In this document: in pieces, positions 1,136 to 7,810 of the stretch
Layout of the letters: every line of letters starts with the position of its first letter
Numbering within the stretch: position 1 is the first letter of the stretch
Virus record (IMG/VR): IMGVR_UViG_2684622582_000001
Span: 1 to 7,931 of that record
Strand: one strand, 5' to 3'
Origin: a virus
Lineage: Duplodnaviria > Heunggongvirae > Uroviricota > Caudoviricetes
DNA length: 7,931 nt
Position numbers and translations under genes: made by a program
The notes under the pieces: model-generated
Database searches by the model: none
What the model saw: the letters and a program-made list of their open reading frames with translations, nothing else
Told to the model about the DNA's origin: nothing

Positions 1136-1248
1136 GTTGACCTCCGATGATTGACTTTAGCGGTGACGTGACGGGGGAGGGAGGTTAACTCCCTGATGCT
1201 GTCGCGCGGCTGCACTTCACATCACCCCAAAGCCAACTACTCTTTGGT

Positions 1249-1290
1249 TCCCGCATTTCGGCGGGACAATCCCATCAATGTTAAAGAGCC
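1249..1290 (-). promoter_or_regulatory. nutL: boxA-like element followed by boxB hairpin (read on the minus strand)
   Basis: Minus-strand boxA-like GGCTCTTTAA (revcomp of 1281-1290; consensus CGCTCTTTA). 14 nt further along the transcript is the hairpin TCCCGC-CGAAAT-GCGGGA (revcomp of 1249-1266), identical to the boxB of nutR at 2403-2420. It sits between the pL candidate and the N start. Confidence 0.7.
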
Positions 1291-1336
1291 TGCCAATCTG
1301 TTCCGTTTGGCTACCAGCGTCCTGCTGATGACTTAA

Positions 1337-1363
1337 ATTTAAGATTTCTTTAATTAGTGGTCA
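1337..1363 (-). promoter_or_regulatory. OL operator (P22 c2 type) with candidate pL promoter
   Basis: ATTTAAGATTTCTTTAAT at 1337-1354 fits the P22 operator pattern ANTNAAG-N4-CTTNANT and is near-identical to OR1 here. On the minus strand TTGACC (revcomp of 1358-1363) is a -35 candidate with TTAAAT (revcomp of 1336-1341) about 16 nt downstream as -10. Further degenerate operator-like TTAAG/CTTAA repeats occur at 1381-1420. Confidence 0.55.
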
Positions 1364-1427
1364 AGGGTATTTTTGAAGAAAACTTAAATTTTTATTGCGA
1401 GGCTTAAGTTTTGCTTTGATTTTTAAA

Positions 1428-1455
1428 GGAAAGAAAAAAGGGGCGAATGCCCCTT
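1428..1455 (-). terminator. Rho-independent terminator at the end of the repressor gene
   Basis: Stem GGGGC(1440-1444)/GCCCC(1449-1453) with loop GAAT, extendable by AA/TT pairs. On the minus strand it is followed by TTTTTTCTTTCC (plus A-run 1428-1437). The hairpin overlaps the repressor stop codon at 1454-1456. Confidence 0.6.
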
Positions 1456-2104
1456 ATGGAAGGTTTGCTATTTTTGCATCGACAACTACACCGATGATTT
1501 TGCAGTTCCCGTTGATCTCAATCATCGGATATTGTGGGTTAAGTGGTTTTAGAAACCTCCTGCCAGCATCAATAACTAACTTCTTGAAAGTTGCCTCGTT
1601 TTCTCCTTCGAGCTTTGCCACTACCAGCTTCCCATTACGAGGTTCTACTTCAGGATCGACGAGTATTATCATCCCTTCAGGGATGCTAAGACCGGCTGGA
1701 GCCGTCATCGAATCACCTTTTACGTCCAGCCAAAACGAATCTTCTGAACAATCTACGGTTGTATCGTACCAGTTATCTATTGCACGCTTATGATATGGCT
1801 CTACAGCTTCCATCCAACATCCTGCGCTTACCCAACTAATTAGAGGATACGAACCTCTTGGATCATGCCTGCTGTGATAGGCAATGTTTGAAAGACTATC
1901 TTCTCCTTTCAACAAGTAATCAGGGGAGCACTGCAAAGCCTTGGCTAAGGCCAATAGGTTTTCGCCATTGGGCTCAGTTTCAGAACGCTCCCATTGGGAA
2001 ATAGCAACATTAGACACGCCAACCATCTTGCCAAGGGCAGCCTGCCTAATCTTGAGTTCTTTTCTGCGAGCGCGAATACGCTCACCCATCAGTTGTGTAT
2101 TCAT
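1454..2104 (-). CDS. c2: Phage repressor, P22 c2 type (HTH N-terminal domain plus LexA-like S24 self-cleaving C-terminal domain)
   Basis: 216-aa ORF that is near-identical along its length to the P22 c2 repressor as I recall it (MNTQLMGERIRARRK...KIIGVVVDAKIANLP). HTH region (QAALGKMVGVSNVAISQWER) is present. C-terminal domain carries the S24 Ser/Lys dyad context (GDSM ... KLVVAKLEG). Divergent from cro across an operator region. Confidence 0.95.
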   Translation of the reverse strand: MNTQLMGERIRARRKELKIRQAALGKMVGVSNVAISQWERSETEPNGENLLALAKALQCSPDYLLKGEDSLSNIAYHSRHDPRGSYPLISWVSAGCWMEAVEPYHKRAIDNWYDTTVDCSEDSFWLDVKGDSMTAPAGLSIPEGMIILVDPEVEPRNGKLVVAKLEGENEATFKKLVIDAGRRFLKPLNPQYPMIEINGNCKIIGVVVDAKIANLP

Positions 2105-2170
2105 AGTTAAGATATCTTAAATAAACTTGACTTAAGATTCCTTTGATAGATAATTTAAGTGTTCTTTAAT
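2105..2170. promoter_or_regulatory. OR3-OR2-OR1 operators with pR (rightward) and the pRM region (leftward)
   Basis: Three 18-bp sites fit the P22 operator pattern ANTNAAG-N4-CTTNANT: AGTTAAGATATCTTAAAT (2105-2122), ACTTAAGATTCCTTTGAT (2130-2147) and ATTTAAGTGTTCTTTAAT (2153-2170). pR candidate is -35 TTGACT (2127-2132) and -10 GATAAT (2149-2154), 16-bp spacer, about 30 nt upstream of the cro ATG. OR3 abuts the repressor start codon. Confidence 0.8.
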
Positions 2171-2184
2171 TTCGGAGCGAGTCT

Positions 2185-2370
2185 ATGTACAAGAAAGATG
2201 TTATCGACCACTTCGGAACCCAGCGTGCGGTAGCTAAAGCGTTAGGCATTAGCGATGCAGCAGTCTCTCAGTGGAAGGAAGTCATCCCAGAGAAAGACGC
2301 CTATCGACTGGAAGTCGTTACAGCTGGCGCCCTGAAGTATCAAGAAAGTGCTTATCGCAAAGCGGCATAA
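2185..2370 (+). CDS. cro: Cro repressor, P22 type
   Basis: 61-aa ORF that is near-identical to P22 Cro as recalled (MYKKDVIDHFGTQRAVAKALGISDAAVSQWKEVIPEKDAYRLE...). Contains an HTH. GGAGCGAG RBS precedes the ATG at 2185. First gene rightward of OR. Confidence 0.95.
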   Translation: MYKKDVIDHFGTQRAVAKALGISDAAVSQWKEVIPEKDAYRLEVVTAGALKYQESAYRKAA

Positions 2371-2377
2371 GCAAATT

Positions 2378-2421
2378 GCTCTTTAACAGTCATGGTCATC
2401 ATTCCCGCCGAAATGCGGGAA
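2378..2421 (+). promoter_or_regulatory. nutR: boxA followed by boxB hairpin
   Basis: boxA-like GCTCTTTAA at 2378-2386 (consensus CGCTCTTTA). 15 nt downstream is the hairpin TTCCCGC-CGAAAT-GCGGGAA (2402-2421; 7-bp stem, 6-nt loop), whose 18-nt core equals the nutL boxB. It lies between the cro stop (2370) and the cII-like start (2479). Confidence 0.75.
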
Positions 2422-2427
2422 TACAAA

Positions 2428-2460
2428 GCGCATCAGTTGGTGCGCATAACTTCTTATTTG
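2428..2460 (+). terminator. Possible tR1-like terminator between nutR and the cII-like gene
   Basis: Short hairpin GCGCA(2428-2432)/TGCGC(2441-2445) with an 8-nt loop, followed by moderately T-rich sequence (ATAACTTCTTATTTGTT). The stem is weak; lambda tR1 is rho-dependent, so sequence evidence is intrinsically limited. Confidence 0.3.
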
Positions 2461-2791: not shown

Positions 2792-2953
2792 ATGACAAAA
2801 CGTCGTAAGAAATACCAGGAAAAAGAAGAGATTCGACACCCTGATTCACCTGAGGGATTAGTGGTAGCCGCAGCAAATAACAGGGCGTTCGCAGAGCGCC
2901 TTGTTGGTGTTTACAGACTAGCCAAAGCAGGAGTGAAACATGGGCGTCGTTAA
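2792..2953 (+). CDS. Hypothetical small basic protein (53 aa) between the cII-like gene and the O-like gene
   Basis: In-frame ATG at 2792 preceded by CAGGAGTAATT (AGGAG RBS); product MTKRRKKYQEKEEIRHPDSPEGL.... It overlaps the O-like start by 14 nt. No recognised homolog; lambda has no gene at this position, so it could be spurious. Confidence 0.35.
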   Translation: MTKRRKKYQEKEEIRHPDSPEGLVVAAANNRAFAERLVGVYRLAKAGVKHGRR

Positions 2954-3761
2954 GTTAGCTGATTACAGGCCTCAACTGGAGGTCGTGGAGCATCGCGTGG
3001 CAGATACCGAAGATGGTTTCATGCGCGTTGCTAACGAGATTACCGACAGTCTGCTGATGGCTGATTTAACCGTCCGGCAGTTGAAGGTGATGCTCGCTAT
3101 CATGCGCAAGACATACGGATTCAATAAGCCGATGGATCGACTCACAAACACGCAGATAGCAGCCATGACAGGTATTCACCACACTCATGTTTGCGCTGCC
3201 AAGCGCCAGCTTATTGAGCGTAAATTCCTCATTGCTGATGGCGTGAAAATCGGAGTGAACAAGGTGGTTTCGCAGTGGATTAGCCAGGACAGCTTAACAT
3301 TAGCTAAAACAGCTAATAAAACATTAGCCGAGTCAGCTAATGGGTATAAGCCAAGTCAGCTAAACACAAAAGACAATATACAAAAGACAATAAATACAAA
3401 TACCCCCTTACCCCCTAACGGGGGCGGCGATGGGCAGGTTAAACCTGAACGTCGCAAGGCAGAACGCATCGACTACGAATCCTTCCTGAACGCCTACAAC
3501 ACCGAAGTCGGTGACAGACTTCCACATGCTGTTGCGGTCAACGAGAAACGCAAACGCCGCCTGAAGAAAATCATCCCGCAACTGAAAACGCCAAACGTGG
3601 ACGGTTTCAGAGCGTATGTCAGGGCGTTTGTACATCAGGCCAAGCCGTTTTACTTCGGAGACAACGACACGGGCTGGACGGCTGATTTTGATTACCTGCT
3701 GAGAGAAGACTCGTTAACGGGAGTTCGGGAAGGGAAGTTTGCAGACAGGGGGATTGCATGA
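2940..3761 (+). CDS. O: Replication initiator, lambda O-like (P22 gene 18 analog)
   Basis: 273-aa ORF with AGGAG RBS (2927-2931). N-terminal region ([38 protein letters not shown]) parallels the lambda O N-terminal domain (ADLTKRQFKVLLAILRKTYGWNKPMDRITDSQLSEIT as recalled). Iteron repeats lie inside the coding sequence. Stop overlaps the helicase start (ATGA at 3758-3761). Confidence 0.9.
3280..3424. other. Candidate replication origin inside the O-like gene: iterons, AT-rich tract, GC-rich inverted repeat
   Basis: About four tandem ~24-bp units sharing the core (T/C)AGC(T/C)AA, for example ACATTAGCTAAAACAGCTAATAAA (3297-3320) and ACATTAGCCGAGTCAGCTAATGGG (3321-3344). These are followed by an A-rich tract (3366-3405, ACAAAAGACAATATACAAAAGACAATAAATACAAATA) and the inverted repeat CCCCC-TAAC-GGGGG (3411-3424). 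Same architecture as lambdoid ori inside O. Confidence 0.6.
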
Positions 3762-5134
3762 GACAGGATATCGAAGCGAGCGTTATCGGTGGCCTGCTGA
3801 TTGGTGGATTAACTCCAACCGCCAGTGACGTTCTGGCAACGCTGGAGCCGGAAGCGTTTTCAATTCCGCTCTACAGAAAAGCCTTCGAGGTTATCCGCAA
3901 GCAGGCGCGAAACAGAAACCTAATCGACGCGCTGATGGTTGCTGAGGAATGCGGAGAGGAGCATTTCACGTCAATCCTGATGACCAGCAAAAACTGCCCG
4001 AGTGCCGCAAACCTGAAGGGATATGCCGGAATGGTCGCGGATAACTATCACCGCCGTCTGGTGCTGGAAATCATGGATGAAATGCGTGAACCAATTCAGA
4101 GCGGAACCATCGACGCATCGAGTCAGGCGATGGATGAGCTTGTAAAGCGTCTTTCAGCCATCAGAAAGCCCCGTGACGAGGTTAAACCTGTACGGTTAGG
4201 GGAAATCATTACTGACTACACTGACACGCTTGACAGGCGTCTGAGGAACGGAGAAGAGTCCGATACCCTGAAGACCGGAATCGAAGAACTTGATGCCATC
4301 ACCGGAGGGATGAACGCAGAAGACCTGGTGATAATCGCTGCTCGTCCTGGTATGGGGAAAACCGAACTGGCGCTGAAGATTGCCGAAGGCGTTGCAAGCC
4401 GCGTTATTCCTGGTTCTGACGTCCGGCGCGGGGTATTGATTTTCTCAATGGAAATGAGCGCATTGCAGATTGCAGAGCGAAGCATTGCCAACGCCGGGAG
4501 GATGTCGGTTAGTGTGCTGCGAAATCCTGCAGCGATGGATGACGAAGGCTGGGCGCGCGTTGCTAACGGCATGAGTCAGCTTGCAGATTTGGATGTATGG
4601 GTAGTCGATGCCTCGCGGTTATCGGTCGAAGAAATACGCTCAATCGCAGAACGGCACAAACAGGAAAATCCAAACCTGTCACTCATCATGGCGGATTATC
4701 TTGGCCTGATTGAGAAGCCGAAAGCAGACCGCAACGACCTCGCAATTGCTCACATCTCCGGAAGCCTGAAGGCGATGGCGAAAGACCTGAAAACGCCTGT
4801 TATCTCCCTGAGTCAGCTTTCGCGCGATGTTGAGAAGCGACCAAACAAACGCCCGACAAACGCAGATTTGCGTGATTCAGGAAGCATTGAGCAGGACGCA
4901 GACTCAATCATCATGCTCTATCGGGAAGCGGTATATGACGAGAACAGTAGCGCCGCACCATTTGCTGAAATCATCGTGACGAAAAACCGTTTTGGCTCGC
5001 TTGGTACGGTTTACCAGCGGTTCTGCAACGGGCACTTTGTTGCATGTGACCAGGATGAAGCCAGACAGATTTGCACAGCATCAAATGCACCTGCTGCGCG
5101 TGGCAGACGATATGCACAAGGGGCTGACGTATGA
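3758..5134 (+). CDS. Replicative DNA helicase, DnaB family (P22 gene 12 type)
   Basis: 458-aa ORF with DnaB-like N-terminal region. Walker A is [14 protein letters not shown] and Walker B-like is [11 protein letters not shown], with a RecA-fold C-terminal region ([10 protein letters not shown] ... [11 protein letters not shown]). Start is translationally coupled to the O-like gene. No lambda P-like loader gene is present, consistent with P22-type replication modules. Confidence 0.95.
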
Positions 5135-5214
5135 CCATCTACATCACTGAGCTAATAACAGGCCTGCTGGTAATCGCAGGCCTTTTTATTTGGGGGAGAG
5201 TAAATCGTGGTTGA
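5131..5214 (+). CDS. Possible 27-aa hydrophobic peptide (not in the supplied ORF track)
   Basis: ATG at 5131-5133 overlaps the helicase stop (ATGA), with AAGGGG 8 nt upstream. Product [27 protein letters not shown] has one predicted TM helix. Its TGA (5212-5214) overlaps the GTG start of the next ORF. Very short, so the call is speculative. Confidence 0.2.
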
Positions 5215-5938: not shown

Positions 5939-6349
5939 GTGAAGCAAACAATATTCCTCCGAACTAAGCAACAACAGCAAGCCGCAATCAACGCCATCCT
6001 CGCAACACCACTCGATAAAGACAAGCCAGTCACCATCCGCATTATTGACTACAAGCGCAACCTTGATCAGAACGCAAAATTTCACGCGATGCTGGCGGAT
6101 ATCGCACGTCAGGTTCAATGGTGCGGCAAATGGTTAAAACCGGAACAATGGAAGGTTTTGTTGATTAGCGGTCATGCAGTGGCAACAAAACAGGAAGCTG
6201 ATGTTTTGCGCGGCCTTGAAGGCGAATTCGTCAACATTCGCGAAAGCAGCGCGCAGATGAGTGTGAATCGTATGGCAAGTCTGATTGAGTACACGACAGC
6301 ATGGGCTATTGGTCAGGGTGTCAGATTTACCGACAGGAGGTACGAATGA
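5939..6349 (+). CDS. ninB: NinB-family protein (recombination/Orf family)
   Basis: GTG start at 5939 with AAGGAG RBS (5927-5932). 136-aa product whose central region ([34 protein letters not shown]) parallels lambda NinB as recalled (LDQNRKLWACLGDVSRQVEWHGRWLDAESWKCVF). Position follows the replication genes. Confidence 0.85.
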
Positions 6350-6926: not shown

Positions 6927-7095
6927 CCCATCCCAAACCCTTCAATACCAGAAAGAAAGCGTCGAGCGGGCTTTAACGTGCGCTAACTGCGGTCAGAAGC
7001 TGCATGTGCTGGAAGTTCACGTGTGCTCCGATTGCTGCGCAGAACTGATGAGCGATCCGAATAGCTCAATGTACGAGGAAGAAGACGATGAATGA
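6919..7095 (+). CDS. ninF: NinF-family protein (Cys-rich, zinc-binding-like)
   Basis: 58-aa product [58 protein letters not shown], near-identical in pattern to lambda NinF as recalled. Start is chosen at the internal ATG at 6919, not the track's 6865. Confidence 0.85.
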   Translation: MPSPSQTLQYQKESVERALTCANCGQKLHVLEVHVCSDCCAELMSDPNSSMYEEEDDE

Positions 7096-7810
7096 GTTAA
7101 TAAATGGCAACGCCATCAAAATGACAAGCATTGAAATCGCTGAGTTGGTGGGAAGTCGTCCAGATAACGTAAAAATATCAATAGAGCGCCTGGCTAAATC
7201 TGGAGTTATTCAACTTCCTGCATTGCAGGTTTTCGAAAAAATCAATAACTTAGGACTGCGCCGTAGTGTCGAGGCTTACGTCTTCGAAGGCGAACAAGGT
7301 AAGCGCGACAGCATTATTGTCGTTGCCCAGTTGTCGCCGGAATTCACCGCTCGTCTTGTTGACCGTTGGCGAGAGCTTGAAGAAACTGCGGTTAATATCC
7401 CCAAAACACTACCAGAAGCGTTGCGCCTTGCTGCTGATCTTGCTGAGCAGAAAATGCAACTGGAAAACCAGCTCGCAATTGCCGCACCTAAAGTTGAGTT
7501 TGCCGATCGCGTTGGCGAGGCCAGCGGAATTTTGATTGGAAACTTTGCAAAGGTTGTTGGTATTGGTCCAAACAAACTGTTTGCGTGGATGCGCGATCAC
7601 AAAATCCTTATTGCTTCAGGTTCCCGGCGCAATGTGCCAATGCAGGAATATATGGATCGCGGCTATTTCACAGTGAAAGAAACAGCGGTCAACACAAATC
7701 ACGGAATACAGATATCGTTCACCACAAAAATCACCGGGCGTGGTCAACAGTGGCTGACCAGAAAGCTGCTCGATAACGGAATGCTGAAAGTAACAGGGGA
7801 GGCTGCTTAA
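7088..7810 (+). CDS. Rha-family regulator / antirepressor-like protein with C-terminal KilA-C (Ant) domain
   Basis: 240-aa ORF whose ATG at 7088 overlaps the ninF 3' end, with GAGGAAG RBS. The N-terminal pattern ([23 protein letters not shown]) resembles Rha-type phage regulators. The C-terminal region ([40 protein letters not shown]...[15 protein letters not shown]) resembles KilA-C/Ant domains. Domain assignment is by recalled pattern only. Confidence 0.7.

Follow-up and report, generated by a model that had tools for sequence, protein, structure and literature searches.

Probable N-utilization sites of the HK620 class and a matching N protein in the early regulatory region of a P22-like lambdoid phage

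The pair of inverted hairpins in the window (the whole 7,931-bp stretch of DNA analysed here) very probably represents nutL and nutR of a P22-like (Lederbergvirus-type) lambdoid prophage, belonging to the HK620 N/nut class and used by a matched N protein. This identification is supported because the geometry of the sites, their gene context and comparative data all fit it. The nut pair is not new, having been annotated in coliphage HK620 since 2001, and it is very common. As a textbook regulatory module the element carries little weight as a discovery; its practical uses lie in prophage annotation and possibly in the supply of an extra orthogonal peptide-RNA pair.

Gene setting and anatomy of the nut sites

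The window represents the early control region of a P22-like lambdoid phage. An open reading frame map with Pfam and PHROG assignments gave the order pL, nutL and N to the left and pR, cro, nutR and cII to the right, with nutL between pL and N and nutR between cro and cII. On the minus strand, a consensus scan identified a pL-like promoter (TTGACC, 17 nt, TAAATT; 1336-1364, read from 1364 to 1336) that overlaps P22-like OL operator repeats, operator-like repeats having been found at 1335-1391. Downstream of it lie boxA (1281-1289) and boxB (1249-1266) of nutL, the former in the same context as in the annotated HK620 nutL, and then a long predicted hairpin in the N leader (1150-1237), between boxB of nutL and the N ribosome-binding site, that was seen in the minimum free energy fold of minus-strand positions 1125-1330 (z = -2.55). 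The gene for the 99-residue N antiterminator follows (836-1135, read from 1135 to 836), with GGAGG placed 6 nt before its ATG, and after it an Nmad5-family gene (824 to 201). Where the Nmad5 gene ends, still within the pL operon, a pattern scan detected a strong intrinsic terminator-like hairpin with a T-run (47-68, read from 68 to 47) that is a candidate target of N read-through. The minus strand also encodes the LexA-type repressor (2104 to 1454).

On the plus strand, a pR-like promoter (TTGACT, 16 nt, GATAAT; 2127-2154) lies inside OR operator repeats (2104-2171) and precedes cro (2185-2370), which was assigned by family match to P22_Cro. BoxA of nutR (2378-2386) lies 8 nt downstream of the stop codon of cro and is followed by boxB (2403-2420). 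Between nutR and cII (2479-2757), a hairpin GCGCATCAGTTGGTGCGC (2428-2445) occupies the position of tR1 in the HK620 annotation; by pattern scan and fold, it is weak and has no clear U-tract on the plus strand. The rightward genes continue with O (2940-3761) and a DnaB-like helicase (replication) gene (3758-5134). Directly after the latter, the pattern scan found an intrinsic terminator-like hairpin with TTTTATTT (5160-5183), a tR2-like candidate for read-through by N.

Identity to P22 c2-cro-c1 is 83.6% across the block of repressor, cro and cII, and the top matches to the whole region were the Lederbergvirus phages N7, IME10 and CUS-3, at ~92%. Complete E. coli genomes, searched with the whole window, returned mosaic matches only (~95%) and no full-length match of 99% or more. 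The lack of a full-length match may be counted in favor of the nut elements being relics in a defective prophage and out of use, and some relatives are visibly degraded, one of them (locus L100) having a nutR cut by an insertion and a frameshifted N. We nevertheless judge this very unlikely, since the open reading frames of N, cI, cro, cII, O and the DnaB-like gene are each uninterrupted and have strong family matches, both nut sites are perfect, and the same sites are present in the plaque-forming phages HK620, CUS-3, N7, IME10 and mEpX2.

Exactly two copies of the 18-mer TCCCGCCGAAATGCGGGA are present in the window, one on the minus strand (1249-1266) and one on the plus strand (2403-2420), and each is preceded by boxA GCTCTTTAA in its own transcript. 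No additional copy was present at up to two mismatches, and none was expected from 200 dinucleotide-preserving shuffles. A repeat finder showed that the inverted repeat is really 19 nt long (1248-1266 and 2403-2421) and revealed a second, imperfect inverted pair (1272-1289 and 2378-2395) that spans boxA and the first bases of the spacer. Because the boxA 9-mer alone is within chance expectation, the evidential weight resides in the combination of boxA and hairpin. The first-pass annotation had described an 18-nt element present once per strand, downstream of a boxA-like sequence in the geometry of N-utilization sites, and this description was borne out in the transcripts from both promoters, pL and pR. 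It had also put the spacers between boxA and boxB at 14-15 nt; read straight from the sequence, the spacer is 14 nt in nutL as claimed but 16 nt in nutR.

Folding of the 18-mer produced a 6-bp stem, UCCCGC/GCGGGA, capped by the loop CGAAAU (-9.7 kcal/mol, z = -2.9), and at nutR the stem is extendable to 8 bp (AUUCCCGC/GCGGGAAU). The hairpin differs from lambda boxB as given in NC_001416, as that annotation had noted for both stem and loop. The loop could be a hexaloop or, alternatively, a GAAA tetraloop with a C·U mismatch as its closing pair, an arrangement that may be compared with the C·C-closed P22 nutR. When the full window was scanned against Rfam at E <= 1, no nut or boxB family was detected and one chance sub-threshold match appeared; Rfam is without any nut family.

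We also considered whether the hairpins belong to a larger duplicated segment, a possibility that the first-pass annotation had itself raised. This was rejected, as the likeness is limited to nut segments of ~45 nt composed of boxA, 'CAxTxATGG' and boxB.

The mode of action proposed for the sites follows what is established for lambda, P22 and phage 21. The pL and pR transcripts would each carry boxA GCUCUUUAA and, 14 or 16 nt on, the boxB hairpin. The arginine-rich motif of N (approximately residues 9-30, core NARNRRRARR) would bind the boxB loop and upper stem, boxA would be bound by NusB/NusE, and the centre of N (common with phage 21) together with its C-terminus (lambda/phage 21-type) would bind NusA and RNA polymerase. 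Polymerase modified in this way would be predicted to pass downstream terminators, which may comprise the tR1 region (2428-2445) and the 5160-5183 hairpin to the right and the hairpin read from 68 to 47 to the left. By analogy with these systems we infer RNA binding, Nus dependence and read-through by N.

Prior annotation and occurrence of the nut pair

In the RefSeq record of HK620 (NC_002730), precisely these segments, each running from boxA to the last base of boxB, bear the label "nutL / nutR; putative N-utilization" (Clark et al. 2001, J Mol Biol 311:657; NC_002730/AF335538; cited in PMC2629481). With UCCCGC-CGAAAU-GCGGGA at both of its nut sites, the window matches the boxB of the HK620-annotated sites exactly. 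Compared with the other catalogued variants, the hairpin differs from the boxB elements of lambda, P22 and phage 21. The same nutL is present in HK620, HK140, HK630, CUS-3 and N7, together with a nutR that agrees in boxA, boxB and spacing, and alignment with other N proteins revealed that residues 1-29 of N, including the motif ...LADDNARNRRRARRQAQREQAM..., are identical in these five phages.

Searches with the 49-nt nutL illustrate how widespread the sites are. Matches were obtained in 26 phage records, 25 of them at 100% and the remaining one (JEP4) at 98%; the phages represented include HK620, HK630, HK140, mEpX2, CUS-3, IME10, ECP1, N7, HF4s, Gally and several Stx phages. At 95% identity or more, the segment was present in 492 of 5,426 complete E. 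coli genomes (~9%), and 485 of the 493 records reached at least 99%. IMG/VR contained at least 120 loci with the 18-mer and 563 relatives of N. Across 596 Gb of species-representative genomes (GTDB-wide), the 18-mer was found in 63 stretches. Fifty-eight of these were a lone 18-mer, without boxA and in unrelated taxa, which is the chance level for 596 Gb; a nut context was seen only in an Escherichia contig, a probably mis-binned 'Segatella' contig and Tatumella punctata. That the exact pair was already annotated in HK620, and is common, had been missed by the first-pass annotation.

In the searchable literature we found no biochemical or structural study of an HK620-type N peptide-boxB pair. 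A full-text search with boxB and motif strings gave no match, the literature on HK620 with boxB consisted of the epsilon34 genome paper only, and searches by mEp and HK phage names yielded nothing on N/nut.

The N protein and its association with boxB

Assignment of the 99-residue protein as N rests on its match to PHROG 271, 'anti-termination protein N-like' (E = 7e-35), and on direct alignments, the Pfam N_peptide match being below the cut-off (18.6 versus 27.9 bits). The protein is a mosaic in which residues 1-64 are HK620-type, with 92-94% identity to HK620-type N proteins, and residues 34-99 are phage 21/lambda-type, with 92% identity to phage 21 N. Its C-terminal 41 residues (59-99) align with residues 71-110 of lambda N (PDB 6GOV chain N, E = 1.5e-4) and form a putative RNA polymerase-binding segment homologous to that of lambda N, in agreement with the lambda-like C-terminus noted at first pass. 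The nearest relative of the centre and C-terminus of the protein is phage 21 N, not lambda N, which that annotation had overlooked.

The arginine-rich motif NARNRRRARRQAQREQA comprises residues 12-28. An alignment that took in the N proteins of the window, lambda, P22, phage 21 and HK620 plus one divergent relative identified four invariant motif positions, A13, R16, R20 and R21, which correspond to lambda A3, R6, R10 and R11 and define the core A-x-x-R-x-x-x-R-R. The motif had been called distinct; judged by this alignment, it does differ from lambda's, yet it belongs to the same motif family.

N/boxB classes are generally accepted to be co-evolved specificity pairs (PMC2629481, PMC8022706). 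Published genome analyses assign boxB specificity to the N-terminus of N and describe mosaic N proteins whose C-termini have been exchanged (PMC2629481, PMC8022706). We compared motif class with boxB class in two samples of loci. The first consisted of IMG/VR loci picked by the 18-mer alone (at least 120). Among the 18-mer matches listed, the downstream N carried the motif [DN][DN][NT][AT]RNRRRARR at 100 of 102 nutL-type copies with enough flank, and the two exceptions were close variants, NARNSRRARR and the divergent TAKNRRRERR. The second consisted of loci with the boxA-L context GGCAGGCTCTTTAACAT, which is common to the HK620 and phage 21 classes. Among the matches listed in this second tally, which pools earlier loci picked on boxB or N too and is not a purely boxB-independent sample, ~155 loci combined an HK620-type boxB with the HK620 motif, 27 combined a phage 21 boxB (loop CTAACC) with the phage 21 motif, and none was mixed. 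Wherever both sites were found, nutL and nutR were of the same class (155 HK620-type, 21 phage 21-type and 2 of a third class with GGGGAUGAUUCGUCCCC, among the matches listed). Moreover, boxB was constant in 74 loci picked on N alone (again among the matches listed), with spacers and flanks that vary.

The HK620-type pair spans at least five cro 3' ends, and its nutL and nutR lie 1152-2990 bp apart, indicative of different immunity cassettes. It likewise spans at least three C-terminal modules of N, with 44 P22/HK620-type, 34 lambda/phage 21-type and 10 N7-type proteins among the matches listed. Motif class and boxB class appear, from this pattern, to be inherited together, independent of both the immunity cassette and the C-terminus of N. 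The loci constitute a clean case from natural variation in which the N-terminal arginine-rich motif is passed on jointly with boxB as a single specificity unit, separable from the immunity cassette and from the polymerase-binding end of N. The first-pass annotation had suggested a matched pair of N motif and boxB, and the co-segregation of classes, free of mixed cases among loci sharing the boxA-L context, supports that suggestion.

A pair that travels together could still be real nut sites with an N/boxB specificity that is not private. N might cross-react with lambda or P22 boxB, in which case the term 'co-evolved orthogonal pair' would be overstated. The core A-x-x-R-R-R-x-R-R is common to the window N, lambda and P22, the four invariant residues are found in all the motif types compared (lambda, P22, phage 21 and HK620), and the loop of the hairpin contains GAAA. 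In addition, P22 nutR boxB CCGCCGACAACGCGG is like CCCGCCGAAATGCGGG in its stem and the start of its loop. Franklin in 2004 and Cocozaki et al. in 2008 are said to have reported that the requirements of lambda and P22 overlap, which we count in favor of cross-reaction. Co-segregation of motif and boxB classes is, however, perfect, with both nut sites of one class, and this argues for selection against mismatched combinations of N and boxB. Furthermore, lambda Trp18, the aromatic residue that stacks on the loop, aligns with Ala28 in the window N. On balance, we regard a shared specificity as rather unlikely and favor use of the two nut sites by a matched N.

Distant relatives of the sites were sought by a scan for boxA ahead of a CCGAAATG loop whose stem is not the canonical one, and a Tatumella punctata prophage and IMG/VR locus L019 were examined as well; the relatives also include loci L301-L364. 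Their N proteins are much diverged and still possess NARNRRRA(K/R)RAA..., with one variant, SRTRRKARR. The loop CGAAAU is kept at both nut sites, where it is carried on other stems such as UCUCCGC/GCGGGGA, CUCCCAC/GUCGGAG, CCCUAC/GUAGGG and GUCUCCAC/GUGGAGAU. In a set of 15 distinct hairpins, both sides had changed at 6 of 8 stem pairs (for example, the second pair from G-C to A-U in 5 sequences), and the loop and its closing C-G were invariant in all 15. The observed covariation score was reached by 0 of 500 shuffles, and slid registers scored far lower. Since this set was loop-anchored and pre-filtered for hairpin formation, its percentage of paired positions is inflated; the compensatory changes are still informative. 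A constant loop on covarying stems is an RNA-level signature, and the recognizable core of the class consists of the loop CGAAAU, the closing C-G and the motif NARNRRRA(K/R)R.

These data bear on whether the inverted 18-mers might instead act as DNA, either as a protein-binding palindrome or as a recombination site flanking the immunity region, or as RNA processing or termination hairpins. The inverted repeat does bracket the immunity cassette, a cassette exchanged among phages, and at one locus (L155) the spacer of nutL is found in nutR, a sign that the two copies may have recombined. We give this explanation hardly any credence. In virtually every one of ~200 cases, each copy is oriented so that boxA precedes it in the transcript to which it belongs, the stems covary around a constant loop, and boxB class tracks the motif of N rather than the type of repressor or cro. 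A role as terminator was rejected for the boxB hairpins, as no T-run follows either copy.

Beyond their identification as nut sites, we raise tentatively, with somewhat less than even confidence, the proposal that the CGAAAU boxB and NARNRRRA(K/R)R constitute a fourth, structurally distinct and functionally orthogonal mode of N-peptide/RNA recognition that is conserved beyond HK620 in a broader set of enterobacterial phages, for example in the Tatumella prophage. Such a mode might possibly take the form of a true GAAA tetraloop with C·U mismatch closure and a peptide helix devoid of an aromatic stacking residue. If this proves true, the fourth mode could provide one more orthogonal pair for RNA tethering.

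Comparison with known N/nut systems

Lambda has the same layout as the window, with pL-nutL-N on one side and pR-cro-nutR-cII on the other, and its motif core A-x-x-R-R-R-x-R-R is the one found in the window N. The boxA of lambdoid N/nut systems has the consensus CGCTCTT(T)A; lambda boxA is CGCTCTTA, as opposed to GCTCTTTAA in the window. Lambda boxB (GCCCTGAAGAAGGGC and GCCCTGAAAAAGGGC; NC_001416) is GCCCU-GAAAA/GAAGA-AGGGC, a pentaloop hairpin unlike that of the window, and the centre of lambda N is unrelated to the centre of the window N.

P22 has boxA GCTCTTTA(A/C) in the same places as the window, whose own boxA is that of phage 21 and of P22 nutL. The P22 boxB hairpins are GCGCU-GACAA-AGCGC at nutL and CCGCC-GACAA-CGCGG at nutR, and the nutR stem resembles the stem in the window. 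By contrast, the loop is GACAA in P22 and CGAAAU in the window, the P22 motif is NAKTRRHERRRKLAIERD whereas the window has the HK620-type motif, and both the centre and the C-terminus of P22 N are unlike those of the window N.

Phage 21 shares with the window its boxA and the boxA-L context TTGGCAGGCTCTTTAACAT. Its boxB is also a hexaloop hairpin at a similar distance from boxA, but the loop is CUAACC and the stems are different. The phage 21 motif is TAKSRYKARRAELIAERR, compared with the HK620-type motif in the window, and the two classes were never mixed in the loci surveyed.

HK620 bears the closest resemblance in its nut sites. Its nutL is identical over 49 nt (boxA, 14-nt spacer and boxB), and its nutR has the same boxA, the same boxB and the same 16-nt spacing, with one difference in the spacer. 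The N proteins, identical to residue 29, share ~92% identity over residues 1-64 and differ at their C-termini: HK620 N ends in a P22/H-19B-type ...LPNVAIYAAGYRKSKQLTAR (90 aa), whereas the window N ends in a phage 21/lambda-type ...RKPRSEMGVTCVGRQKMKLGSKPLI (99 aa). Finally, the immunity cassette that lies between the nut sites is HK620-type in HK620 and P22-like in the window.

Nut-site variants among relatives of the phage

Several loci in our survey of nut sites and N genes depart from the HK620-type arrangement of the window. In one IMG/VR phage (L155), the nutR site at 4531-4583 on the minus strand carries the 14-nt spacer of nutL (CATTGATGGGATTG) within an otherwise nutR-like context, which suggests gene conversion or recombination of one inverted nut site with the other. 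In L226, both nut sites carry a third class of boxB, GGGGAU-GAUUC-GUCCCC (around 3576 on the plus strand; the partner copy lies 2.7 kb upstream on the opposite strand), preceded by the same boxA-L context, the stretch around boxA of nutL. This class is accompanied by an N protein, probably initiated at GTG, with a different N-terminus (...NHRRYPVKAREIRKLERARKHKE...) and a P22/HK620-type C-terminus. Degradation is seen in the relative L100, where foreign sequence interrupts boxB-R after TCCCGCCG (around 7690, plus strand), and the N reading frame is also broken. In the divergent prophages of Tatumella punctata JCM 8885 (L252) and the IMG/VR locus L019, the boxB loop is the same and the motif core is conserved; the nutR stems contain one internal mismatch, C·C or C·A, and boxA of the Tatumella nutL reads GCTATTTAA.

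Rightward transcript

Between nutR and cII, a hairpin at 2428-2445 (plus strand) occupies the position annotated as tR1 in HK620. It reads GCGCATAAGTTGATGCGC in relatives versus GCGCATCAGTTGGTGCGC, with the upper stem altered as a paired change. Read on the minus strand, this hairpin scores as terminator-like, with a T-run. Further downstream, the O gene contains four direct repeats of approximately 18 nt resembling ATTAGCCGAGTCAGCTAA (3279-3363, plus strand), spaced at 20-24 nt and presumably serving as origin iterons. The nin region includes ninB (5939-6349) and, 3' of it, an Ant/KilAC-type antirepressor gene (7088-7810, plus strand; PHROG 63).

N leader, pL operon and operators

Directly 3' of N within the pL operon lies a minus-strand gene of the Nmad5 family ('nucleotide modification associated domain 5'; 201-824; PHROG 1965, unknown function). 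Ral, sieB or other accessory genes occupy this post-N position in other lambdoid phages. Upstream, in the N leader, a long hairpin with an outer stem of roughly 21 bp is predicted to follow boxB-L and precede the ribosome-binding site of N (1150-1237, minus strand); the leader has a fold z-score of -2.55. This hairpin recalls the N-leader structure that RNase III processes in lambda. The OL (1335-1391) and OR (2104-2171) sets consist of P22-like operator repeats, TAGTTAAGATATCTTAAATA among them. The repressor-cro-cII block is just 83.6% identical to that of P22.
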